DNA from: Bacillota bacterium
Lineage (GTDB): Bacteria > Bacillota > Bacilli > Bu12
Direction of reading: 5' to 3'
DNA: 64,000 nt
Assembly (NCBI GenBank): GCA_014896485.1
Contig: JADBKH010000002.1
Location: forward strand, 11,327 to 75,326
Shown: in pieces, positions 3,858 through 15,714 of the stretch
Layout: each line of letters opens with the position of its first letter
Numbering within the stretch: position 1 is the first letter of the stretch
Position numbers and translations under genes: made by a program
The notes under the pieces: model-generated
Databases searched by the model: none
Told to the model about the DNA's origin: nothing
What the model saw: only the letters and a program-made list of their open reading frames with translations

Positions 3858-4117
3858 ACGCTCTCCTTTCTCTGCCCGTCTTGGTGCCTCGAGTGTAACG
3901 AATCAGCCAACCTCTTGGAAAGGGATCGATCGATCCGAGCGCATAACCTCGTAAGGTCGTTCTTGCACAACAAAATATGCTGATCTCTCTGCTTTTCGGC
4001 GGATAATGCTACACGGTGGACCTTTACGGTGGCTGACGTTGGTTGTCATTTCGCTCATTGCGATCCAGTATGGCTGTGTTTTCATCGAGGTGGCAGTCTG
4101 TCAAAGGAGTATCCTGA

Positions 4118-6268
4118 GTGGCAATACATTTCTCCGCATGGGCGGATGAAGGAAAGCTCGTCATCTATCTCACTGTCTTGCCAGATCCGGGTACCCATCG
4201 CGTTTTGGTGCGTGCCGCTCAACAGTTGCAAGCCCAAGGTCGCGACGTATGGCTGGCCCTCGACACGTTCGATCCAGCGGTTATCTTAACACACCATCCC
4301 GACGTCGTCGTCGTCGGCGATTTGGCACACCGTAACGGCCCAGGCAGCTACCGTGCGGCACGCTACCTCGAAATCCAGCGCCTGTTGGAAGCTGGCATTA
4401 ACGTCGTGACAGATGTCGATGCCTTGCATATCGCAGCTTTCCAGGAGCAATTGGAACGCTTAACCGGAAATCGCATGCGACACGCAGTACCCGATTCGAT
4501 TTTGGCCGATGCGGATCAGCTCTTTTTCTATGATCTTCCTTCTGAAGTGATCGCAAAAAAACTTCGTGGTGAATCCCCGCTCTTTCTTGTCAATGAGGAG
4601 GGAAGCGATACCCATTCCCTGCCTTTGACTGCAAAGGCCATCGCCACCTTGCGTGCCTTGGCCATGCGCACTGTAGCCGGCTATGCACAAAAGAGTGGGG
4701 AAAAATCGCCCGTGATGGTCACAGGCGCGACGGTACAAGAAAAAATCCTCGTCTGCCTCGGCCACCCAAAGCGCAGCAATCTGTTGTTGGAATGTGGCCG
4801 CCGCATGGCCCTCAGGACAGCAGGTGAGCTTTACGCGTTGATGGTGCTCCCTGAAACTGCTGACAATCTGTCGGATACCGACCTGCGTCGTTTACAACAA
4901 ACACGCGCTCAGCTCCAACCGGGAGAAACCCTACTGACCGAACCGGCACGAGGACGCACCCTCGGTCGCGTCATCGCCGATGTGGTCAAACGTGAGGGAA
5001 TCACCCAGGTGATCGTCGGCCAACCTGAGCACGGCAAGACCTTGCGCCACTCGCCAGTGCCATATCTGGTTCGTTCCTTAAGGGATGTGGACATGCGCAT
5101 CGTCGGTTGGCAACGGCATTCCCAACCCCCACAACCCCCGCAGACGGCCCCTACCGTCCAGCGTCCATCCGGCAAGCTGATCCTCTATGCCGGCGTGGCC
5201 CAGGGCGATACAGTCCTGAGGTACATGTTGGAGGATGCAAAGCGTTGGTCAAGCGAGGGTTTGCAGATCTGCACCGCTCCGATGTATCGTACAGGATCTG
5301 CCCTCTCTGCGTTCGCCGCGTGCTTTTCGCAGATGTCTGCCGTGGCAGTCAGAGAGGATCCTACGGCTCAGGAGAAGGGATGGATCGACGAGGCGGCAGC
5401 CACTGCACATCCTCCCGATGCTGTCCTAATCGACATGTTGCCGCACCAAGAAGAGCCGTCGGAGGCAATGACAGCACGTTACGAGCAAGTTATCCACCTG
5501 CTTGATCAAGGTGTCAATGTGGTCGCCGCCGTCTCACTTGCCCAATTGGCCAGCATCTCCGGCGACGTGGACACGTTGGCCCACATGTGCGCGAACAACC
5601 CCATCCCAGACTGGTTGGTGGCACGCGCCCAGGAGATGAAGGTGATCGACGCTCCCTTACAGGAGTGGCTGGAAACAACGGAGAAGGGTGCTGATCAGCT
5701 TCCAACACCAGAGGAGCAGCCGGCTGGATGGGCTGCGCTTCGGCAGATCGCGCTCCAACGCGCCTCTGAGTTTGCGGCATCTGCAGATGCGGCTTTGGAT
5801 CAAGCCACAGACACCGACGAAAAGACGCTGGTCTGTATCAGTGAAGAGATGCTCGATGAAGGACCGCGCCTGTTGCGTCGCGGATACCGCATCAGTACAC
5901 GCAAAGGGTTGAAGATGCACGTCCTCGTTGGCGTACACAAACCCTTGAACCAGATCGATGCCGAAAAGGGCGAGGCGCTCCAGCATCTGCGCAGTTTGGC
6001 TGTCAATCTGGGAGCGACTTTTGAAGTGCAGCAGGCGACTGGAGGCGGTTGCGACCAGCTCTTCGTTCACGCAGCTTGTCAGCAAGGGGTCACGCAGATT
6101 GTTTTGAGCCACGCCGCTGCGCAGGGACACTGGTTGCGCCATACCATCGCCGATGCGCTATTGGCTGGTGCCGACTTTGCCGATCTCCATCTCGTAGCCG
6201 GCCTGCCGCAACCGACCCCACAGCCCGTCGAGGAGCCGGTTCTCACAACCCTCCGTCTTTCCACCTAG
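4118..6268 (+). CDS. Soluble tandem [KdpD N-terminal domain + Usp domain] x2 protein with degenerate P-loops
   Basis: There are two modules. Each starts with GKL(V/I)(I/L)Y and aligns to the KdpD sensor N-domain (GDLAHRNGPGS...LEAGINVVTDVDALH). Each is followed by a Usp-like block (KILVCLG...ITQVIVGQP). Walker A GxxGxGKT is replaced by LPDPGTH in module 1 and AQGDT in module 2. No TM or kinase domain. Confidence 0.7.
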   Translation: MAIHFSAWADEGKLVIYLTVLPDPGTHRVLVRAAQQLQAQGRDVWLALDTFDPAVILTHHPDVVVVGDLAHRNGPGSYRAARYLEIQRLLEAGINVVTDVDALHIAAFQEQLERLTGNRMRHAVPDSILADADQLFFYDLPSEVIAKKLRGESPLFLVNEEGSDTHSLPLTAKAIATLRALAMRTVAGYAQKSGEKSPVMVTGATVQEKILVCLGHPKRSNLLLECGRRMALRTAGELYALMVLPETADNLSDTDLRRLQQTRAQLQPGETLLTEPARGRTLGRVIADVVKREGITQVIVGQPEHGKTLRHSPVPYLVRSLRDVDMRIVGWQRHSQPPQPPQTAPTVQRPSGKLILYAGVAQGDTVLRYMLEDAKRWSSEGLQICTAPMYRTGSALSAFAACFSQMSAVAVREDPTAQEKGWIDEAAATAHPPDAVLIDMLPHQEEPSEAMTARYEQVIHLLDQGVNVVAAVSLAQLASISGDVDTLAHMCANNPIPDWLVARAQEMKVIDAPLQEWLETTEKGADQLPTPEEQPAGWAALRQIALQRASEFAASADAALDQATDTDEKTLVCISEEMLDEGPRLLRRGYRISTRKGLKMHVLVGVHKPLNQIDAEKGEALQHLRSLAVNLGATFEVQQATGGGCDQLFVHAACQQGVTQIVLSHAAAQGHWLRHTIADALLAGADFADLHLVAGLPQPTPQPVEEPVLTTLRLST

Positions 6269-6341
6269 CCCATCTGGAGGATTGGGCTTTCCCAGCGTAC
6301 CGATTACCATAGTGCAAAAGGTACCCTGGGGTGAGTGGCCA

Positions 6342-7817
6342 ATGGATGGAATAACGGCTCCTCTTTTAAACGAGGCCTTGGCAAACGAACTCTTAGACAG
6401 AATGAGCGATGCCGTCATCCTTCTTGATGGCGAGCAACGCGTTCGTTACATCAACCTGGCGGCAGAACGCCTGATGGGTTGGGAGCCTGGAGAATGTGTA
6501 GGGCAGGCGTGTCCGCAGATCTTGCGTTGTCAAGATGTGCATGGACAACGCTTGTCCAATTGCTTGGGGACCGCTTGTCTCTTGAAAGGTCTCCCTTTGC
6601 CTTGTGATACGCTCTATATCCGCGATCGGTTTGATCGCATCGTTCCTGTTTCGATCAGCCATACCCCCCTTCCCGATGCTTTCCCAGAGACCGGCGGCGG
6701 TGTGCTCATGGTGCTCCGCGATCTGACACTGCCCATGCAGGAGGAAGAAGAGCTGCGGCAGGCCAACCGACGGCTGCTGCGCTTGGCGGCACAGCGTCGG
6801 CGACGTGCCCGACAACTCCAGCAACTGGCCATGCTGTTGGCGCAACGCCCTGACCTTCCCTTTCCAACCGATGAAGTGCTGGCCATTATTCTCCGACTGC
6901 TCGAAGCGACGTCGGTCTCTTGGAAACTCGTGGAGACGCTGTCTGGCCTCAAAGAAAGCGGTCTACCTCCTTCCGCCAAAGAGGAGCGCAAATCGCAAAA
7001 GGATACAGCGGTGCAAAGCAATGACGCCGTACCGCTGGGACGTTCCGATCCACCCTTTGGGGTGCTGCAAGTCACGTACCCGCAGCCACTGACAACCGAT
7101 GACGAACGTCGCCCCTTGCTGCGACAGGTCGGCTACATGCTCTCGCTCGCCCTGGAGGATCGCCTGGGCTTTATCCGCTTACAGCGCCTTGCCGTTCTGC
7201 AGGAACGACAGCGCATCTCTCGTGAAATGCACGATTCCGCAGCGCAAACGATCGCTTTTGCACAGATGCGCTTGGGGCAGCTCCGCCGCTCTGCCGTAGA
7301 GACGCCCGAAGCATCAGCCCGGGTATTGGGTGAGATCGATGACGCCCTGCAAGAGACGTTGTTGGAGATGCAACGTGTCGCAAAGCAACGTCCTCCCCAT
7401 CGCGAAGATGCACAGCGCACCCGTCTCTCTGCCATCCTCCACACGCTGCACCAGCACGCGCAACGTATGGGGATAAGACTGGACATCGATGAAGTGAGCA
7501 AACAACTGGCTGGTCAACTCTTTTTGCTGCCAGGAGCCAGCTTCGAACTCGTGCCCCTTTTGCAGGAAGCGCTGGCCAACGTCAAAAAACATGCTGGGAC
7601 CGAAGAAGCACATCTGAGCCTTCGCCGGGAAGCCGATCACTGCCGCTTGACCCTCAAAGATGACGGCACCGGCTTTGATCCTACCAAGCAATCGGCGGGC
7701 CACTTTGGTTTGCACACCATGCAGGAGCGGGCCGATAAGTTGGGGGCTGCGCTGACCATCGAAAGTACCCAGGGAAAAGGCACACGTGTCGTCCTTCGAC
7801 TACCGGTCACCGAATGA
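6342..7817 (+). CDS. Cytoplasmic sensor histidine kinase: Cys-rich PAS, coiled coil, GAF-like, HisKA_3, HATPase_c (NarL-partner type)
   Basis: PAS (AVILLDGEQRVRYINLAAERLMGW). H-box ERQRISREMHDSAAQ (HisKA_3). N/G boxes (EALANVKKHA, DDGTGFD, GHFGLHTMQERA). No TM segment. ATG at 6342 follows GGGGTGAG; the track start at 6282 is an alternative. Confidence 0.85.
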   Translation: MDGITAPLLNEALANELLDRMSDAVILLDGEQRVRYINLAAERLMGWEPGECVGQACPQILRCQDVHGQRLSNCLGTACLLKGLPLPCDTLYIRDRFDRIVPVSISHTPLPDAFPETGGGVLMVLRDLTLPMQEEEELRQANRRLLRLAAQRRRRARQLQQLAMLLAQRPDLPFPTDEVLAIILRLLEATSVSWKLVETLSGLKESGLPPSAKEERKSQKDTAVQSNDAVPLGRSDPPFGVLQVTYPQPLTTDDERRPLLRQVGYMLSLALEDRLGFIRLQRLAVLQERQRISREMHDSAAQTIAFAQMRLGQLRRSAVETPEASARVLGEIDDALQETLLEMQRVAKQRPPHREDAQRTRLSAILHTLHQHAQRMGIRLDIDEVSKQLAGQLFLLPGASFELVPLLQEALANVKKHAGTEEAHLSLRREADHCRLTLKDDGTGFDPTKQSAGHFGLHTMQERADKLGAALTIESTQGKGTRVVLRLPVTE

Positions 7818-7829
7818 ACGCATAACGGC

Positions 7830-9380
7830 TTACAGGAGATCTTTTTGGCCTTCAAGGCGTGCAATCAGCAAAGGCAGCTGCTGTTCCAACTGGCTCATCT
7901 CCGCTTGCAGCCGGCTGAGATCAAGGGACTCCTGCGCATCTTGTCTGGTCGACGAGAATGCCCTGCTGGAGGTTGGAGTCACCCAGGCAGGTGGTAATCC
8001 CAAAAGTGTCGCAGCCTGAGGCGTCAAGGCGATCAGATCGTCTCTGGAAAGCGTTGCGATGCGCGCTTTGCCCAACGCCCGCATCGCAATCACCATCTCA
8101 TCGACGCTCGACAGTAGAAACGCAGCCAATGCCTCAGCTGCCCTGTCCATCTGCAAGTTTTCTTTGCGCCATCCGCTCTCCCACAACAGTTCCAAAGGCG
8201 TAAAGCGCGGGACCAGCTGAGACAGTTGGGGGTGTGCCAATGCGAACAGGGGCCCCGTGCCCATCACGACCCCTTCTGCCCCCAGGGCCATCGCTTTGAG
8301 CGCCTCCTCCGGCGTCAGCAGGCCGCCTGCAGTGATCAAGGTGACCCGACCGCGCAGGTGGTGCGTTTCCCAAAACGCGGCTGCCCGCTGTAAGGCAAAG
8401 ATCGTCGGCAAACCCACCGTGTCCGACAGCAACGGCGGTGCGCCAGAGGTCGCCCCGGTGTTTCCGTCGATGGTGACGACATCGACTCCGCTTTCGACCA
8501 CCCAACGCAGATCGGCCTCCAGATCGTCCGAAGCAGGCAGTTTGATGCCAATCGGAACCCCACCGCTTTGTTCGCGCAAAAAAGCGACCAGCTCGGGCAA
8601 CGCTTGAGGCAGCGGCCAGTCATGAAAGCCTGCCTGAACCTCGATGAACCGGGCCGATTCAGCTCTTAAGTCAGCCCGTGTCTGCTCCGAAAGATTATCT
8701 GTGGACATGCGGTGTCCAGCCGCAGCCCAAGCGCCATGCCCCACTTGAATCTCCACCATCGAAGCTTGACGTACTGCGATCAAATCCTGGCCCCACTGGG
8801 TCCGTCCAAACTGCACGATCATCCGGGAACAGGCGTGCCGCTGCTCGGGCAGAAAAGGTCCAAGGCCGCCATTGACGGCCGTCCCTGCCTGTTCGGCACC
8901 TTTGGCCAGCGCTATTGCGGCCGGTTTGGAGATTGCCACACCATAGCCCATCGCCCCCAACAAAAGTGGGATCTGCAGGACCAATGGCTTTTGGGCCTTC
9001 GGCCCCAAGACCAACTGTGTCTCTACTTTCGCATCGTAGGCCAAAGGTCGCCGCCACAAGACAGCGGGGTCGAACGCGATCTCATCCAGAAGGGCCAACG
9101 GACGGCTAGAACCCATTGGCCGCTGTACGACCGATCCTCCTTCGGCACGTAGCTCGTTTTCCACCAGCCGCTGCATACCGCTCCGGCGTAAGACGTTGGC
9201 CATCTCTGCAGGATTGTGCGCATAAGTTGAAGAGAAAAGTCGTTTTAAAAAAGGCCGTATCCAAAGGCCAACCAGTTCAAAGAAGATTTCCGATCGACCC
9301 AATGACAGGCGGAGGAAGCCGAAAAGTACGATAAGCCCGAGCAAACTTCCGACGCAAGCGGAAAACACAAGCACATTCAT
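7830..9380 (-). CDS. Membrane-anchored FMN-binding glutamate-synthase-domain protein (YerD-like), paralogue B, with a C-terminal coiled-coil tail
   Basis: N-terminal TM helix. GltS FMN (TIM-barrel) domain blocks: LLLGAMGYGVAIS, GIKLPAS, VVTIDGNTGATSGAPP, AGGLLTPEEALKAMALGAEGVVMGTG. The start overlaps the stop of paralogue A by 4 nt (ATGA). Confidence 0.8.
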   Translation of the reverse strand: MNVLVFSACVGSLLGLIVLFGFLRLSLGRSEIFFELVGLWIRPFLKRLFSSTYAHNPAEMANVLRRSGMQRLVENELRAEGGSVVQRPMGSSRPLALLDEIAFDPAVLWRRPLAYDAKVETQLVLGPKAQKPLVLQIPLLLGAMGYGVAISKPAAIALAKGAEQAGTAVNGGLGPFLPEQRHACSRMIVQFGRTQWGQDLIAVRQASMVEIQVGHGAWAAAGHRMSTDNLSEQTRADLRAESARFIEVQAGFHDWPLPQALPELVAFLREQSGGVPIGIKLPASDDLEADLRWVVESGVDVVTIDGNTGATSGAPPLLSDTVGLPTIFALQRAAAFWETHHLRGRVTLITAGGLLTPEEALKAMALGAEGVVMGTGPLFALAHPQLSQLVPRFTPLELLWESGWRKENLQMDRAAEALAAFLLSSVDEMVIAMRALGKARIATLSRDDLIALTPQAATLLGLPPAWVTPTSSRAFSSTRQDAQESLDLSRLQAEMSQLEQQLPLLIARLEGQKDLL

Positions 9381-10855
9381 GACGCCGTTCCCCTTTCAGG
9401 AGACGCCGTCCACGCAGGGCGCAACTGCGTGCGCTTTGCCCAGGATGTATCGAGTGCGACCAGGTCAGCGCGATCGATCGCCTGCAAGGCGTGTTTGCCC
9501 ATGGATCGTGCCGCCACTTTCATCTCCTCGTTGGCCGCCTGCAGAAAGTTGGTCACCGCGTGGGCGGCCCGATCGACATCCAACTGTGCCGCATGACTGC
9601 CTTGCGCATAGAGCAGCTCCGTCGGTGGCATCTGTGGCAGCAGATCGGGCAGCTGCGGATGGGCCAAAGCCAACAGTGCCGCCGTACCAATGGCGACCAC
9701 ATCCGCGCCCAGGGCGAGCGCCTTGAGAAAATCTTCCGGCGTCAGCAGGCCACCGGAAACAACCAGCGTGACCCGCCCGCGCCACTGGTACTGCTCCCAC
9801 AGCCGCTGTGCACGCAACAGCGCATCGATCAGCGGCAAACCAAACGCATCTTCCATCAACGGTGGCGCACTGACAATGCCCGCCCGCCCGGCATCGAGCG
9901 TCACAAAATCGGCACCGCTGCGGACCACATGCAGCAGCTCCTCCTCGAGGTGCTGCGAAGCCGGCAATTTCACACCAACCGGTACGCCGTTCCCCTGTTC
10001 TTTGAGGGTTCCAAGAAGATCGTCTAGTCCTTGCGGCAGCTGCCATCGAGAGAAGTCTGTCGGTATCACCACCGGATCTTCGGCCCCAAGCCCCATCGCC
10101 CGTCGCGCAGCAGCACCTACCTGCTCCGATGGGATCTCATAGCCGTAAGCGCCCCAGGCCCCTGTGCCGAGTTGCACTTCAATGGCATCGGCCCCACGGA
10201 TCCGATCCGCCCCTTGCGTCCACGGCGGACGACCCACCTGCACCATCAGACGCGCAGCAACCTGGCGCTCTTCGGGCAAAAGCGGACCCAGCCCCGAATT
10301 GCTCGCTGTACCTGCCGTCGAAGCACCCTTGGCCAAGGCGATGCGTGCAGGACGGGAGAGGGCAACACCGTAACCCATCCCGCTGATGTAGACCGGCAGT
10401 TCAAGGGTCAAAGGGCGCGCGCTGAGGGGGCCTACGATCACGCTGCTGTCGATCGGAGCGTCGACCGGCAACGGTCGCCGGTCCAAGACCGCTGCAGCGA
10501 AAGCGATCTTTTGAAAACCGAGTGGCTGGTGCGGCGTACCTATCGGCCGCTCGATAGTATGACCATCCGAAGCAGCCCGCAATTCCGTCTCCAAGATCCG
10601 CTGCCAGCCACTTCGGCGAAGCACATGGATCATTTCGAAGCGGTTGTGCTCATAGGGTGCCCGTGTGAGATGACGGGCCACTCCTCGAAGCGGTCCACGC
10701 AACAGCATCATCGACCATCCGGGCAAAAGCATTGGAAGTGCAAAAAAGAGGGCACTGCCGATCAGTACCCCCGCCATGCTGCCAAGTAGGAGAACGATCG
10801 AGATCTGCATGGGCGTAGTTTGCTTCCATTGGCAAGCTTTCACACATCCGCCCAT
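9377..10855 (-). CDS. Membrane-anchored FMN-binding glutamate-synthase-domain protein (YerD-like), paralogue A
   Basis: Same architecture as 7830..9380 and roughly 50 percent identical by eye (ISGMGYGVALS, GVKLPAS, FVTLDAGRAGIVSAPP, SGGLLTPEDFLKALALGADVVAIGTA). Begins 12-57 nt after the nrdB stop, depending on the start chosen (10855 or ATG 10810). Confidence 0.8.
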   Translation of the reverse strand: MGGCVKACQWKQTTPMQISIVLLLGSMAGVLIGSALFFALPMLLPGWSMMLLRGPLRGVARHLTRAPYEHNRFEMIHVLRRSGWQRILETELRAASDGHTIERPIGTPHQPLGFQKIAFAAAVLDRRPLPVDAPIDSSVIVGPLSARPLTLELPVYISGMGYGVALSRPARIALAKGASTAGTASNSGLGPLLPEERQVAARLMVQVGRPPWTQGADRIRGADAIEVQLGTGAWGAYGYEIPSEQVGAAARRAMGLGAEDPVVIPTDFSRWQLPQGLDDLLGTLKEQGNGVPVGVKLPASQHLEEELLHVVRSGADFVTLDAGRAGIVSAPPLMEDAFGLPLIDALLRAQRLWEQYQWRGRVTLVVSGGLLTPEDFLKALALGADVVAIGTAALLALAHPQLPDLLPQMPPTELLYAQGSHAAQLDVDRAAHAVTNFLQAANEEMKVAARSMGKHALQAIDRADLVALDTSWAKRTQLRPAWTASPERGTAS

Positions 10856-10867
10856 CGGAAACAGCCG

Positions 10868-11902
10868 CTACAACTCTCCCCACTGTGGCCCGCTCGCTTT
10901 GGCATAATTGAGCACACGCTGCTCGAAAAAGTCGACTTTTTGCTCGTTGAGGTTGGCAAAACGCGTCAGCCATGGCAGCGGATGTTCCATCTGCTGCGGA
11001 AAAAGTGGCGACAATCCCAGCCGATGCAGCCGGTCATTGGCCAGATAGCGCACATATGCCGCCACTGTTTCTGCGGTCAAGCCAGCGATCCCCTCGCCGA
11101 GCACGTGCGCGCTCCAGGTGGTCTCATGCTCGACTGCAGCTGCCGCCATCTGGCGCAGGTTCTCCTGCATTTCTGGCGTAAACAGCTGTGGCTCTTCCCG
11201 AAACAACTCCCGCAAGATGTTTTGGAAAAGCACCAAGTGGATCCGTTCGTCGCGGTTGATGTATTGGATGATGGAGACTGTTCCGCCCATCTTGCCCCTG
11301 CGCCCCAAGCCGTAGAAGAAAGCAAAGCCACTGTAGAAGTAGAGACCTTCCAACAGGAAGTTGGCCATCAGCGTATGCACCAAGTTTTCTTCTGTCGGCT
11401 GTACGACAAACTGCTGGTATTGGTCGGTAATCAAGCGGTTTCGAGTGAGGAGAAGCGGATCGTCCCGCCACAAGTTGTAGATGGCATCGCGGCGTGCTTG
11501 CGGAACGACTGAGTCGACGATATAGGCGTAGCTTTGGGCGTGCACCGCTTCCTGAAAATCCTGTACCGCCAAGACCAGGTTGACTTCGGGGGCTGTGATG
11601 ACGGCACTGATATTGGGAAGGTTGTGCACCTGTAGGCTGTCCATGAAGATGACAAACGAGAGCACCCGATCATAGGCGGTCCGCTCCGCTTCGGTCAATT
11701 GCTCGTATTGCAGGGCATCGTGGGTTAGGCTGATCTCTTCGGGAATCCAAAAGTTTTGCATCATGGTGCGGTAGAGGCGATAGGCCCAGGCATACTTCAC
11801 GTTGTTGAGTTCGATCAGGTTGGTCGGATGCCCATGGATCATCCGTCGCCGCTGCGCATCACGTTCTCCCTGTTCGTTAAAAAGCGGCTTTTTCTCCAGC
11901 AT
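10868..11902 (-). CDS. nrdB: Class I ribonucleotide reductase beta (R2) subunit
   Basis: NFWIPEEISL. Metal/radical motifs are D (FMDSLQV), EAVHAQSY (E-x-x-H-x-x-x-Y), LLEG and RDERIH. ATG at 11902 follows AGGGGGTG; the track start at 11935 is over-extended. Confidence 0.9.
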   Translation of the reverse strand: MLEKKPLFNEQGERDAQRRRMIHGHPTNLIELNNVKYAWAYRLYRTMMQNFWIPEEISLTHDALQYEQLTEAERTAYDRVLSFVIFMDSLQVHNLPNISAVITAPEVNLVLAVQDFQEAVHAQSYAYIVDSVVPQARRDAIYNLWRDDPLLLTRNRLITDQYQQFVVQPTEENLVHTLMANFLLEGLYFYSGFAFFYGLGRRGKMGGTVSIIQYINRDERIHLVLFQNILRELFREEPQLFTPEMQENLRQMAAAAVEHETTWSAHVLGEGIAGLTAETVAAYVRYLANDRLHRLGLSPLFPQQMEHPLPWLTRFANLNEQKVDFFEQRVLNYAKASGPQWGEL

Positions 11903-11958
11903 CGCACACCCCCTGTTGGTACTTCGCGCACGCATCCTTCGTCACCATCCGTCAGGGC

Positions 11959-14250
11959 CTATCCCGCACAGCTTTCGCAGCTGTCGTCAACAGTCAGGCT
12001 TTGACTGCGCAAGTAGTAGACGGTCTTGAGCCCCTCTTGCCAAGCCAACTGGTACAGCTCGAGCAACGTCTGAGCGGAAATCTGTGGGGTGACATAGAGA
12101 TTGATCGACTGCGATTGATCGAGATGACGCTGCCGCACGGCAGCGGCGCGGATCGACCAGCGCTGATCGATCTGGTGCGCCGGCTTGTACAGCCAAAAAT
12201 TTTCGGGGGAAAGACCCGGAGCGACCTGAGGCAACACCTCTCCTTTCTTCTCTTCGAGATAGAAACGCGCGAAAATCGGATCGACAGAGGCGGTGGTCCC
12301 GGCGATCACCGAGATGGAGGAGGTTGGTGCCACAGCGAGCAGGTAGCCGTTGCGCAATCCAAATTGCCGTACATGCGCTCGCAGCGATTGCCAGCGCGCA
12401 TCGACATAGCCATGGCGTTCAAAGTAAGCACCGCTCTGCCACTCGCTGCCCCCAAAAAGGGGATAAGAGCCACGCGCTTTTGCCAGATCACAGGAAGCGT
12501 CGATCGCCTCGAAAGCAAGTTGAGCAAAGAGCCGTTCGGCCTCCTGCAGGTGCGCCTCTGACTCCCAGGGAATGCCGCGCTGGGCCAAATACTGGTGGTA
12601 GCCCATCACCCCCAGCCCCACCGCTCGATAGCGTTGTGCCGTCAGTTTCGCTTGGGGAAGGGGATACGCATTGAGATCGATCACATTGTCGAGCATGCGT
12701 ACCGCGACCTTTACCACGTGCGAGAGCGCCTGTGGATCCGTGATTTTGCCCAGGTTGATCGAAGCCAAGTTGCAGACCACAAAATCTCCTGAAGCAAGCC
12801 GCGTGGTAATGGTCCCCTCTACTGAGGCTTGTGTCCCGATCTCCCGTGTCGGCGAGGTATTCTGCGCAATCTCGGTGCACAGGTTGCTCGCATAGATCTG
12901 CCCGGCGTGTTTGTTCGGATTGTCACGCTGTACGGTATCCCGGAAGAAGAGAAACGGTGTTCCCGTCTCGTAGGCGCTTTTAAGGAGGGCTTTCATCAAG
13001 TCGATGGCAGGCAACACCCGCCGAGGCAAGTTGGGCGCGGCGATGCAACGTCGATAATGGGCTTCGAACGCTTCGCCAAAAAACATCTCCAACGACCAGC
13101 CAAATCGCCGGCGAACCTCGTCGGGATCAAACAGGTACCAATCGCCCCGTTCGGCAACCGTGCGCATGAACAGATCGGGGATGGCCACACTGGTAAAGAC
13201 GTCATGGGCTTTCAACCGTGGATCCCCGTTGTTGGTCTTCAGCTCCAAAAACGCCTCGATGTCGGGATGCCAGATATCCAGCGTGACCGTCACTGCCCCC
13301 TTGCGCATGCCCAACTGATCGACTGCAATTGTCGTCTCATCGAAGCAGCGCACCCAAGGCACGACACCCGCCGCAACGCCTTGCTGCCCTCGGATCGCTG
13401 CCCCGCGCCCCCGTACACTGCCCAGATAGATACCCATACCGCCACCGTTTTTGGAGACCTGCGCAAAGGCAGCATTGCTGCGGTAGATCGACGCCAAGTC
13501 ATCTTCAACGGCATCGATAAAGCAAGAGGCCAGCTGGGCACGCGGACGCCTGGCGTTGGCCAACGTCGGTGTCGCCGGCAGCAGGCAGAGGGTGCTCATG
13601 ACATCGTAGAAGCGTTTCGCCCACAAAACGCGGTCCTGCTCGTGCAGGGCCAAGTAAGCAGCCACCCCCATCCACGCTTCTTGGGGGAGCTCCCAGGCTT
13701 TACCTGCTGGGTCGTGGATCAGGTAGCGATCGGCCAAAGTATGCAGACCTGCGTAGGTAAAGAGCCGGTCGCGTTCGGGTACCATGGCCTGCCCCAACGC
13801 TATCAGCTCCTCGGGCGAATAGGTCTGCAGGATCACGGGATGATAGCATCCTGCAGCTGTCCATGCTTGGACATGCGTCAAGAAATCGCCATAACCGCGC
13901 CTTCCGCCGCGAAGGGGGGCTGCTTCACAGAAGAGTGCTTCCAAAAAAAGGCGGGCGGCCCAAAACGTCCATTGCGGCTGATCGACCGACGTCCGCTCAG
14001 CAGCGACCTGGGCCAATGCCCGCCACAGCGCTGCCTCGTCGTCATTCGGCAAAAACAAGGCTCTGGCATCGGACAGCAACGCCTTGCAATCTTCTGCCGT
14101 ACATTCCGGCAGTTGTGCGTGGATCGCCTGGAGCCAGGCCTCCTGTAGGCTACGTGAATCTTTTGCGTCCAAAGAGGAGCTAAGGGGTAAAAGAGGACGT
14201 GAAGAGATACTGGCGGTGGCGTTTTCACCGCGGATCTCGATGGTGGACAC
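11959..14250 (-). CDS. nrdA: Class I ribonucleotide reductase alpha (R1) subunit, without an ATP-cone
   Basis: Long R1 homology (NLCTEI, C-terminal CESC redox pair). GTG at 14250 follows GAGGAGGG, directly downstream of the riboswitch. The N-terminus carries no ATP-cone motif (NrdE-like length). Confidence 0.9.
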   Translation of the reverse strand: MSTIEIRGENATASISSRPLLPLSSSLDAKDSRSLQEAWLQAIHAQLPECTAEDCKALLSDARALFLPNDDEAALWRALAQVAAERTSVDQPQWTFWAARLFLEALFCEAAPLRGGRRGYGDFLTHVQAWTAAGCYHPVILQTYSPEELIALGQAMVPERDRLFTYAGLHTLADRYLIHDPAGKAWELPQEAWMGVAAYLALHEQDRVLWAKRFYDVMSTLCLLPATPTLANARRPRAQLASCFIDAVEDDLASIYRSNAAFAQVSKNGGGMGIYLGSVRGRGAAIRGQQGVAAGVVPWVRCFDETTIAVDQLGMRKGAVTVTLDIWHPDIEAFLELKTNNGDPRLKAHDVFTSVAIPDLFMRTVAERGDWYLFDPDEVRRRFGWSLEMFFGEAFEAHYRRCIAAPNLPRRVLPAIDLMKALLKSAYETGTPFLFFRDTVQRDNPNKHAGQIYASNLCTEIAQNTSPTREIGTQASVEGTITTRLASGDFVVCNLASINLGKITDPQALSHVVKVAVRMLDNVIDLNAYPLPQAKLTAQRYRAVGLGVMGYHQYLAQRGIPWESEAHLQEAERLFAQLAFEAIDASCDLAKARGSYPLFGGSEWQSGAYFERHGYVDARWQSLRAHVRQFGLRNGYLLAVAPTSSISVIAGTTASVDPIFARFYLEEKKGEVLPQVAPGLSPENFWLYKPAHQIDQRWSIRAAAVRQRHLDQSQSINLYVTPQISAQTLLELYQLAWQEGLKTVYYLRSQSLTVDDSCESCAG

Positions 14251-14283
14251 GGTTTTCCCTCCTCGGGGTCTACGTGCACGCAC

Positions 14284-14450
14284 GGGCAGGTCTTCGGACT
14301 TCGGTTCCTCCTCAGAAGACGCCTTCCCAAAGCATCGCTTCAGTGGCTGCCAAGCGCTTGCCGCTTGCCTTCCTCGTCCCCGTCACCGCAGCGGGACTGT
14401 GCCGGATTCTCACCGGCTTCCCTGTTGGGCCCATCCTTTTTGGGCACCCG
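14284..14450 (-). promoter_or_regulatory. Cobalamin (adenosylcobalamin/B12) riboswitch in the nrdA leader
   Basis: The minus-strand RNA reads GGGUGCCC...AACAGGGAAGCCGGUGAGAAUCCGGCACAGUCCCGCUGCGGUGA...GCCACUG-N12-GGGAAGGC...AGUCCGAAGACCUGCC. These match the conserved core, the GCCACUG/GGGAAGGC junction and the B12 box of the cobalamin riboswitch family. Confidence 0.85.
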
Positions 14451-14454
14451 CGCG

Positions 14455-14501
14455 CCACTAGATATTGTGGTTTTTTGCAAGCATGGCACTAGATACAGGA
14501 G
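14455..14501 (-). promoter_or_regulatory. Tandem NrdR boxes (operators of the RNR repressor NrdR)
   Basis: Box 1 (14455..14470) reads CCACAATATCTAGTGG on the minus strand and is near-palindromic, about 12/16 to the acaCwAtATaTwGtgt consensus. Box 2 (14486..14501) reads CTCCTGTATCTAGTGC, with only the right half conserved. The start-to-start distance of 31 bp is the usual tandem NrdR spacing. Confidence 0.6.
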
Positions 14502-14508
14502 TTGTCAA
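14480..14508 (-). promoter_or_regulatory. Putative sigma-A promoter of the nrd operon
   Basis: On the minus strand: perfect -35 TTGACA (14503..14508), 17-nt spacer, then a weak -10 CATGCT preceded by TGC (extended -10-like). NrdR box 2 overlaps the spacer. Confidence 0.4.
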
Positions 14509-15714
14509 GACCATTGGATATACCCCGGGCGACTTCTTGCGACGGAAAAAACGCAGTCTCCTCCTTTCCGAGTGCGCTGATCAAGTCGGTCAAAAGCTCA
14601 GAACGACGGGAGAGCGAAGCGATCTCGATCCACTCGTCCAGGGTATGCGCTGCTCCTCCACAAGCGCCCATGCCATCCAAGGTAGGCGCAAAAAGAGCTG
14701 TAAAATTCCCATCCGCCCCCCCCTTCAACTGCAACCCCTTGCAAGTGTTCACCCCGCGCAACGGCCACTGCTTCTGCGCATGCGAACAATTGACGGTCGC
14801 GTAAAGAAGGCTGCCATACCGGTCGATTTACCCCACCTTCGACTTGCAGACGGGCACGTGGATCGGTCGGCTTCAGACAATGAAGGGCGGTCATGACGCG
14901 ATCAACCTCGTCTTGGGAGGCCAAGCGAAGATCAACCCATGCATCGGATTGGGCCGCGATCGTGTTGACCGTCGTTCCCCCACTGATCTGTCCCACGTTG
15001 ATCAACGTACCTCTCTCCGGGGCAGCCAAAGCGACCAATTCGCAGATCAATTGTGCCAACTGGTGAATCGCTGAAACGCCCTGGGCAGCATCGTTGCCGG
15101 CATGAGCTGCGATACCGTCGACATGCAAGTGAACACGCCCCACGCCACGCCGCCCCAACTTGAGCGCACCCTTTTCTGTCGCACCTTCCATCACCAGCAC
15201 AGCGCGGGCTTGTCGTGCCGATGCTTCGATCAGCCCGCGATTCTCTTTGCTACCGATCTCTTCATCTGCAGTGATGAGCAACTGCATCGGTGGCGGCCAT
15301 CGCTGGGGAAGTGACAATTACCTGTTTAAGGGCCTCCATCGCCATCACCAGACCCGATTTATCATCGAAAACCCCCGGCCCAAACGCACGCCGATCCTTT
15401 ATCCGCCACGGTGCCAGTTTGAGACTGCCGAGCGGGTGTACGGTATCCAAATGGGCCAGCAGCAGGATGGGACGATCCGCCGGAGAACCGTACAGATACG
15501 AGAGGGTATCGCCGACAGACTGCCGAGAAATGCGGGTGAGTTGCCCACCCCACCGCTCGGCAAACCCCTGCAGCGTACGTTGCACCTCGTCAACCAGACG
15601 ATCGGTAGCCTACTTATCGGTACTGGGGCGCTCGATCTTCGCCCAAGAAGCCAGTTGTGCAAGCATCTGCGTTGTTTTCTCCCCATCATCTACGAGCATC
15701 TGTCCTTTGCTCAT
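14489..15714 (-). pseudogene. Disrupted M20-family metallopeptidase (carboxypeptidase G2 / N-acyl-L-amino-acid amidohydrolase-like)
   Basis: The homology is split over three frames (track ORFs 15262..15585, 14598..15317, 14489..14761). There is also an in-frame TAG at 15610..15612, inside the expected ...IERPSTDK*ATDRLVDEV region. Family motifs are present: LLLAHLDTVHP, GVFDDKSG, ITADEEIGS, GGADGNFTA, TLDGMGACGGAAHTLDE. Confidence 0.8.

Follow-up and report, generated by a model that had tools for sequence, protein, structure and literature searches.

A class Ia ribonucleotide reductase operon with a B12 riboswitch and a probable NrdR operator, followed by two flavoprotein genes in one lineage of Bacillota

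The stretch of DNA analysed here (the window) comprises 64,000 nucleotides of contig JADBKH010000002.1 from a Bacillota bacterium. Its minus strand carries, from position 14510 down to 7830, a −35-like hexamer, NrdR boxes, a cobalamin riboswitch, the genes nrdA and nrdB of a class I ribonucleotide reductase (RNR), and two further genes, A and B, for YerD-like paralogues with the flavin mononucleotide (FMN) domain of glutamate synthase (GltS) (Table 1). The open reading frames (ORFs) and domain matches bear out a preliminary description that had placed the four genes on one strand. Class Ia nrdAB operons controlled by B12 and NrdR are already known, and what is new at this locus is the attachment of two flavoprotein genes in one lineage.

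Table 1. Features of the nrd locus, listed in the direction of transcription (window coordinates).
Feature	Position	Strand	Description
−35-like hexamer TTGACA	14504..14509	(−)	sole promoter-like element upstream of the leader, read from the sequence; the promoter scan made no call
NrdR box 1 CTCCTGTATCTAGTGC	14486..14501	(−)	weak: 10/16 matches to ACACWATATATWGTGT by manual count; overlaps the promoter spacer and −10 region
NrdR box 2 CCACAATATCTAGTGG	14455..14470	(−)	13/16 matches to the consensus ACACWATATATWGTGT
Cobalamin riboswitch aptamer	14268..14466	(−)	RF00174, 104.1 bits, E 5.7e-25
nrdA	11959..14250	(−)	class I RNR alpha subunit, 763 amino acids from GTG 14250; whole ORF 11959–14283
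nrdB	10868..11902	(−)	class I RNR beta subunit, 344 amino acids, Asp/Tyr type
Terminator-like hairpin and T-run	10741..10772	(−)	in membrane-helix codons at the 5' end of gene A; terminator scan
Gene A	9377..10810 (ORF to 10855)	(−)	YerD-like GltS-FMN-domain paralogue; N-terminal membrane helix and FMN triosephosphate isomerase (TIM) barrel
Gene B	7830..9380	(−)	YerD-like GltS-FMN-domain paralogue; N-terminal membrane helix, FMN TIM barrel, and long C-terminal helix

Reductase genes and their regulatory leader

NrdA contains the all-alpha and barrel domains of the large subunit (Ribonuc_red_lgN, PF00317; Ribonuc_red_lgC, PF02867, E 4e-158), scores well above the cutoff of the class I alpha-subunit model (TIGR02506, 583 versus 341 bits), and finds its best match among the Protein Data Bank (PDB) entries in 7agj (659 bits). 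No ATP-cone (PF03477) was detected in NrdA at E ≤ 0.001. The cone is present in NrdA of the nearest relatives, L086 and L087, and the alignment to L087 NrdA begins only at residue 65; on comparison of these sequences, the cone appears to have decayed in this lineage. NrdB matches PF00268 and passes NF007184 (462 bits; cutoff, 310), with 6zjk (383 bits) and 7ail (355 bits) as its first and second PDB matches. We take 6zjk to be a class Ia RNR from Clostridium botulinum, and 7ail and 7agj to be from Aquifex aeolicus. The motifs providing Asp, Glu/His, Tyr, Glu, and Glu/His are intact in NrdB (FMDSLQ, QEAVHAQSY, LEG, and RDERIH) and align with those of 6zjk, in agreement with the full D/E/H/E/E/H + Y set ascribed earlier to this subunit.

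The pairing of Tyr with Asp is found in classes Ia and Ib (PMC8463856). Because NF007184 is passed, the Tyr/Asp motifs are intact, and the class Ib models score far below their cutoffs (TIGR04170, 365 versus 750; TIGR04171, 147 versus 355), the enzyme is assigned, from its sequence, to the class Ia type. The label NrdE-like, used for the large subunit in the preliminary description, holds for the missing cone only. A class Ib RNR (NrdE/NrdF with NrdI) was rejected on the two model scores and on the absence of space for nrdI between the genes.

The four-gene layout is shared only by two metagenomic Logan contigs, L004 and L085, which encode an identical NrdB protein; the four proteins of the window are 88–93% identical to those of L004, at a synonymous divergence (dS) of ~0.5. 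The GTG start of nrdA and its ribosome-binding site (RBS), GAGGAGGG, are both kept in L004. The start of nrdB is an ATG, and its homologues are 344–345 residues long. For gene A, ATG 10810 is the probable start, being conserved in both L004 and L085; the sequence upstream of it differs from the relatives by an 11-nt indel and many changes, and ATG 10855 is not conserved. The ATG of gene B overlaps the stop codon of gene A by 4 nt (ATGA), as it also does in L004. With the most likely starts (14250, 11902, 10810, and 9380), the gaps are therefore 56 nt (nrdA–nrdB), 57 nt (nrdB–A; 12 nt if counted from ATG 10855), and −4 nt (A–B), the same spacing as was first described. No ORF of the size of nrdI or nrdH fits between the four genes, and the operon is therefore, as had been stated, without either.

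The leader is composed of three elements of unequal quality. The riboswitch scores far above the gathering score of 31.5 bits, covers the complete model (positions 1–189 of 189), and is conserved in L004. An NrdR operator was taken to be a pair of 16-bp boxes, each in part palindromic, with a 15–16-bp linker between them, in a promoter region; two such boxes with a 15-bp linker are described in PMC13584703, and the same geometry in PMC12051234. The linker between the two boxes of the window is 15 bp, the canonical length. Box 2 is the unique site with three or fewer mismatches in the 64-kb window, and 15 of its 16 bases are the same in L004, where the 3'-terminal G is replaced by A. Box 1 is weak, and the TTGACA hexamer is paired only with a poor −10 sequence (CATGCT, 14481–14486). 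Of the single promoter, tandem NrdR boxes, and riboswitch claimed initially, the riboswitch is well supported, box 2 is a good match, and box 1 and the promoter are weaker.

B12 riboswitches on nrdAB have already been reported in the literature. In the window, the terminator scan gave no minus-strand match at 14268–14200, behind the aptamer, and the RBS of nrdA lies 5–12 nt past the aptamer. Since no terminator follows the aptamer, riboswitch control is probably exerted at the translation initiation of nrdA; any effect on the distal genes A and B would therefore be indirect.

A second question is whether A and B belong to the nrdAB transcript. The gaps of 56 and 57 nt, the 4-nt overlap, and the lack of any promoter-like site in the gaps between the four genes (the sole match of the scan lies inside nrdB, at chance level) are indirect evidence of a possible single transcript, against which one hairpin has to be weighed. 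No other terminator-like site of the region is as strong as this hairpin (10772–10748; 10-bp stem, 5-nt loop, followed by TTTTTT), which lies 96 nt beyond the stop codon of nrdB, 38 nt within gene A, and folds with −19.7 kcal/mol (z = −1.8). Its sequence is identical in L004 and L085, and is part of a 32-nt run invariant between the window and L004. It qualifies the earlier statement that no hairpin/T-run terminator is seen between the genes. The number of terminator-like matches in the region (8) hardly differs from that expected from shuffling (7.6).

It has been considered that nrdAB is bicistronic and ends at this hairpin and T-run (10772–10741), with A and B expressed by low read-through or from an unrecognised start and without meaningful co-regulation by B12 or NrdR. 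The strength, position, and full conservation of the hairpin, the bicistronic organisation of related nrdAB operons, and the apparent action of the riboswitch on nrdA translation rather than on transcription all speak for such an end. The hairpin is, however, located downstream of the start codon of gene A, within the conserved coding sequence of its membrane helix; its z-score is modest; and no promoter is visible for gene A. Conservation was rejected as proof of a terminator, because the operon alignment contains 15 invariant runs of at least 32 nt and this one is unexceptional. Selection on the T-run was likewise rejected, since TTT is the preferred Phe codon in the window anyway and the T-run needs no special explanation. 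We consider a bicistronic end unlikely on these grounds. The hairpin could be either an attenuator or merely coding sequence of the membrane helix, and A and B are probably co-transcribed with nrdAB at a lower level, as the weak RBS of gene A and the hairpin with its T-run in the first 60 nt of the gene suggest.

The flavoprotein paralogues A and B

Membership of both proteins in PF01645, proposed in the preliminary description, was confirmed with 151.7 bits for A (E 4e-44) and 145 bits for B (E 4e-42) over a cutoff of 20.4. The two proteins share 44% identity, and both start with a single hydrophobic helix, whose hydropathy peak in A falls at residues 14–34. A bona fide large subunit of glutamate synthase was rejected for both, since NF008730 gives 36–41 bits versus a cutoff of 1047 and the FMN domain alone is present; also, no cysteine is found in the region of A and B aligned to the 3Fe-4S cysteines of GltS. 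In the AlphaFold2 model of B (pLDDT 81), an FMN TIM barrel is accompanied by one long helix at either terminus. In a Foldseek search with this model, the FMN domains of GltS (7mfm and 1ofd) ranked at the top (probability 1.00, E 2e-16), followed by glycolate oxidase, flavocytochrome b2, and type 2 isopentenyl diphosphate isomerase. The C-terminal extension of B (residues 469–515; window 7830–7980, minus strand) is predicted as a single long helix of ~45 residues, and is also present in the L004 orthologue; it is missing from A, and the C-terminal tails that occur in some other members of the family are unrelated to it.

The grouping of A and B with Bacillus subtilis YerD is assumed, following the label used in the preliminary description and general knowledge. 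For B. subtilis YerD, the one experimental context found is membership in the SigB general-stress regulon (PMC7522486). Our literature search brought up no mention of PF01645 or YerD-type proteins as part of nrd operons.

The motif DAGRAGIVSAPP was found in A and DGNTGATSGAPP in B. Both had been regarded as deviations from the GGTGA(S/A)P stretch, more strongly in A, which was thought to fit an active/degenerate heteromer. A is indeed the more deviant at this motif, having lost a Gly kept in 82 of 86 relatives, but GGTGASP is the sequence of GltS, whereas the consensus of the YerD-like family is DGAEA(A/G)T. Over the 65 alignment columns that are at least 90% conserved across 84 family members, A deviates at 6 and B at 7 positions, compared with a mean of 2.3 and a maximum of 9 in the other members; both thus retain ~90% of the family-invariant residues, including those of the FMN-barrel core. 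The ratios of nonsynonymous to synonymous divergence (dN/dS) against L004 are 0.13 for A and 0.11 for B, and purifying selection acts on all four genes. These data therefore give no indication of an active/degenerate pair.

A and B are sisters in a neighbour-joining tree of the family, and so the duplication is placed within this lineage. Adjacent pairs of YerD-like genes also occur in other Bacillota (L006, L007, L009, L012, L024, L026, L035, L037, and L052; at ~10000–12750 in most of these loci), where the same tree shows several independent duplications, with no RNR nearby. The recurrence of such pairs hints that the paralogues may form hetero-oligomers.

Linkage among relatives and its interpretation

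Conservation of the linkage had been set as a test of the preliminary proposal, and the survey was run in both directions. Starting from the flavoproteins, 79 loci with YerD-like homologues (35–43% identity) were collected from species-representative genomes, to which the source genome does not belong, with flanks of up to 10 kb on either side; all are from Bacillota except for two metagenome-assembled genomes labelled Deltaproteobacteria/Desulfobacteria and one "uncultured bacterium". Neither nrdA nor nrdB was found within 10 kb in any of the 79 loci. From the reductase side, 80 metagenome loci together with L086 and L087 were examined (NrdB relatives of 48–61% identity), 65 of the 82 having at least 1.5 kb of downstream sequence. 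None of the 82 carries a GltS-FMN gene, and no recurrent gene follows nrdB in these relatives. The nearest NrdB proteins, from Paenibacillus, Alicyclobacillus, and Effusibacillus, are ~60% identical; beyond the clade of the window, L004, and L085, the identity falls from 93% to 61% for NrdB and from 89% to 41% for B.

The regulation of the distal genes is also not recovered among their homologues. When 1.29 Mb of YerD-like loci were scanned with the consensus, no paired NrdR boxes were found upstream of the YerD-like genes; there was one weak single match, in L022, and the strong palindromes in L077 and L082 described below adjoin unrelated genes. A covariance model built from six riboswitches placed none of the 79 YerD-like genes behind a cobalamin riboswitch; only L053 and L073 have riboswitches, and these belong to btuF-like genes. 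The YerD-like genes mostly stand alone, with a co-directional upstream gene within 100 nt in 9 of 71 cases, and no recurrent neighbour emerged when 748 neighbouring ORFs were clustered (no cluster was present at over 10 of the 76 loci). An M20 peptidase, which precedes the nrd leader in the window, was considered as a YerD partner and rejected, since its cluster occurs in 8 loci but 2.5–5 kb away and never adjacent.

By contrast, L087, the nearest NrdB relative outside the clade (61%), has an RF00174 riboswitch upstream of a plain bicistronic nrdAB. The leader is therefore considered to belong to nrdAB, and the flavoprotein pair to be an add-on.

Some further observations were made at these loci. 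In L086 (Effusibacillus consociatus, JBHSHC010000157, 1–17038), nrdA is called at just 380 amino acids, and nrdAB comes immediately after a btuF/FecCD/ABC operon and before a cbi cluster, both of them led by a riboswitch, with three RF00174 matches in 17 kb. In L087, nrdAB is followed by an ORF of 116 amino acids (3972–4322, plus strand) with a Gly/Tyr-rich repeat tail (GYGYPGYGYGY) and no Pfam match on record. Palindromes with 0 or 1 mismatch to the NrdR consensus occur in L082 (8614–8629 and 13710–13725) and L077 (13759–13774), adjoining a spoVAD-like gene and a zinc-ribbon ORF of 139 amino acids; no RNR gene lies within 10 kb of them.

We lean, with moderate assurance, towards the view that the nrdAB unit represents the known type of B12/NrdR-controlled class Ia operon, to which a flavoprotein pair has been appended in this lineage as an operon passenger, by a recent gene-order event. 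As the pairing is confined to one narrow lineage, a local accident of gene order is likelier than a new helper system of the reductase. When cobamide is present, the riboswitch would shut down nrdA, probably by hiding the RBS, and ribonucleotide reduction would then fall to a B12-dependent reductase whose gene lies elsewhere; NrdR would add repression dependent on dATP/ATP. A and B, derived from a lineage-specific duplication of a YerD-like gene, would be transcribed mainly by read-through from the nrd promoter and translationally coupled through the ATGA overlap. Their products would most likely assemble into a hetero-oligomeric flavoenzyme anchored at the cytoplasmic side of the membrane. 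To judge from the fold, this enzyme may oxidise or reduce a small substrate of the 2-oxo, imino, or hydroxy acid type, and it is possible that it exchanges electrons with the quinone pool.

Several points weigh against regarding the pair as a passenger. The four genes follow one another closely and no internal promoter is recognisable among them, and since the layout survived a dS of ~0.5 between the window and L004, co-expression with nrdAB is likely and could be selected. Non-conservation is measured only at long range, because the databases lack genomes at intermediate distance. None of yfaE, nrdI, and nrdH is present in the operon, and flavin-dependent reduction is a known need in the maintenance of class Ia R2. 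Reduced class Ia–c clusters are said to "likely require a dedicated reductase" (PMC8463856).

The close packing behind one regulatory leader, the layout shared with L004 and L085 at that dS, the absence of yfaE, nrdI, and nrdH from the operon, the stated need for a dedicated reductase, the purifying selection on all genes, and the FMN-barrel core residues kept in both paralogues are what could be advanced for the preliminary proposal that A and B are a flavoprotein module at the membrane that serves the class Ia RNR exclusively, donating, in the manner of YfaE/Fre, the extra electron for assembly of the diferric-tyrosyl cofactor or for met-R2 reduction, or supplying oxidant or reductant to R1/R2, and co-repressed since needed only with the B12-independent enzyme. 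We regard such a module as improbable. In addition to the missing linkage in the 79 and 82 independent loci and the lack of B12 or NrdR control over homologues elsewhere, the nearest nrdAB relatives form plain bicistronic operons, the fold is that of a substrate-converting TIM barrel (GltS or hydroxy-acid oxidase type) and not of a flavodoxin or ferredoxin, the translation start of gene A is weak and a terminator-like hairpin lies inside the gene, and B. subtilis YerD is a general-stress protein. A protein of the NrdI/YfaE/NrdH type was rejected on the TIM-barrel fold of B and on the two surveys. More specifically, A and B could be pictured as a membrane-tethered FMN reductase that uses electrons of the quinol or NAD(P)H pool for assembling the diferric-tyrosyl cofactor of NrdB or reducing it again, or for re-reducing NrdA, thereby replacing helpers of the YfaE/Fre or NrdH type under B12/NrdR co-repression; this version we find quite doubtful. 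A new accessory role is accordingly unsupported by the comparison, and a part in ribonucleotide reduction is possible, the evidence for it being adjacency within one clade.

Genes repressed by B12 riboswitches often encode B12-independent isozymes, and the position of A and B downstream of the cobalamin riboswitch might thus suggest a B12-independent substitute for a cobamide-dependent reaction (cf. metE versus metH), independent of RNR; this is very improbable, as no homologue in the 79 loci lies behind such a riboswitch, the riboswitch is ancestral to nrdAB (L087), and we know of no B12-dependent reaction that is replaced by an FMN TIM-barrel enzyme of the A/B type.

If the pair does serve the reductase, it would constitute a new kind of maintenance system for class I RNR, and the YerD-like FMN proteins, which are widespread in Bacillota but uncharacterised, would gain a first function. 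On the present evidence, the locus offers a clean example of a class Ia operon controlled by a B12 riboswitch and probably by NrdR from an unsampled Bacillota lineage, and a gene order suggesting a function that wider comparison fails to back. The repeated duplication of YerD-like genes into adjacent pairs is of interest in itself, as it points to hetero-oligomers.

The surroundings of the locus consist of ordinary genes. Past gene B, and convergent with it, lies a plus-strand unit (4118–7817) of a KdpD-like non-kinase sensor of 716 amino acids directly followed by a PAS/HisKA_3 sensor histidine kinase; because the stop codon of the kinase gene is only 12 nt from that of gene B on the opposite strand, there is no room for an intergenic terminator of either unit. 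The flanks also contain a penicillin-binding protein. Upstream of the nrd leader are an M20 peptidase, a GNAT acetyltransferase, a class IV aminotransferase, and ATP-binding cassette (ABC) transporters. The M20 peptidase gene (14598–15585, minus strand) is apparently frameshifted, being split into an ORF with the Peptidase_M20 N-terminus (15262–15585) and one with M20_dimer (14598–15317); it is either a pseudogene or the product of an assembly error. Pfam scans of 34 further flanking ORFs yielded transporters, peptidases, sensor kinases, an Lhr helicase, and other ordinary genes, and no further RNR or B12 genes in the 64-kb window. A search of the window for a second RNR, nrdR, nrdI, and nrdH, made with three small reference sequences for the small genes, was also negative, though this is a weak result.

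Comparison with known systems

The FMN domain of the GltS alpha subunit (1ea0, 1ofd, and 7mfm) is the best structural match to the model of B, with which it shares the TIM barrel and the GGL...GAD motifs for the FMN phosphate. A and B differ from the complete subunit in having no amidotransferase, central, or beta-helix domains, in addition to the missing cysteines at the 3Fe-4S-aligned region. They are closer to the stand-alone "FMN-binding glutamate synthase family proteins" of Bacillota (PF01645, YerD-like), with which they have in common the domain, the N-terminal region, and the family-invariant residues, at the identities given above; an N-terminal membrane helix and adjacent paralogue pairs are found in some of those proteins as well. 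Unlike A and B, which are the distal genes of an nrd operon, the YerD-like genes mostly stand alone among variable neighbours, and B is further distinguished by its extra C-terminal helix.

YfaE is a 2Fe-2S ferredoxin of 84 amino acids that maintains the diferric-tyrosyl cofactor in Escherichia coli, and NrdI is a flavodoxin-like activase of ~140 amino acids. E. coli nrdAB-yfaE and the class Ib nrdI provide the analogy behind the preliminary description, in that a redox accessory gene is co-transcribed with class I RNR genes (PMC8463856). A and B are, in contrast, membrane-tethered FMN TIM barrels of ~480–516 residues, and are linked to RNR genes in one clade only, whereas yfaE and nrdI are linked to them across many lineages.

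The enzymes of 6zjk, 7ail, and 7agj, presumed above to be class Ia RNRs, are the best solved relatives of NrdB and NrdA of the window, and share the conserved Asp, Glu/His, and Tyr motifs; the window NrdA differs from them in lacking the nucleotide-binding part of the N-terminal cone. The closest counterparts of the operon as a whole are the class Ia nrdAB operons with B12 riboswitches (Streptomyces and Propionibacterium types, and L087), which likewise have the riboswitch in the nrdA leader and nrdA ahead of nrdB. The putative pair of 16-bp NrdR boxes, which has a 15-bp linker and overlaps the promoter, resembles the arrangement described in PMC13584703. Relative to these operons, box 1 of the window is degenerate, its NrdA is without the recognisable ATP-cone that the relatives keep, and two membrane-anchored FMN cistrons have been added after nrdB.

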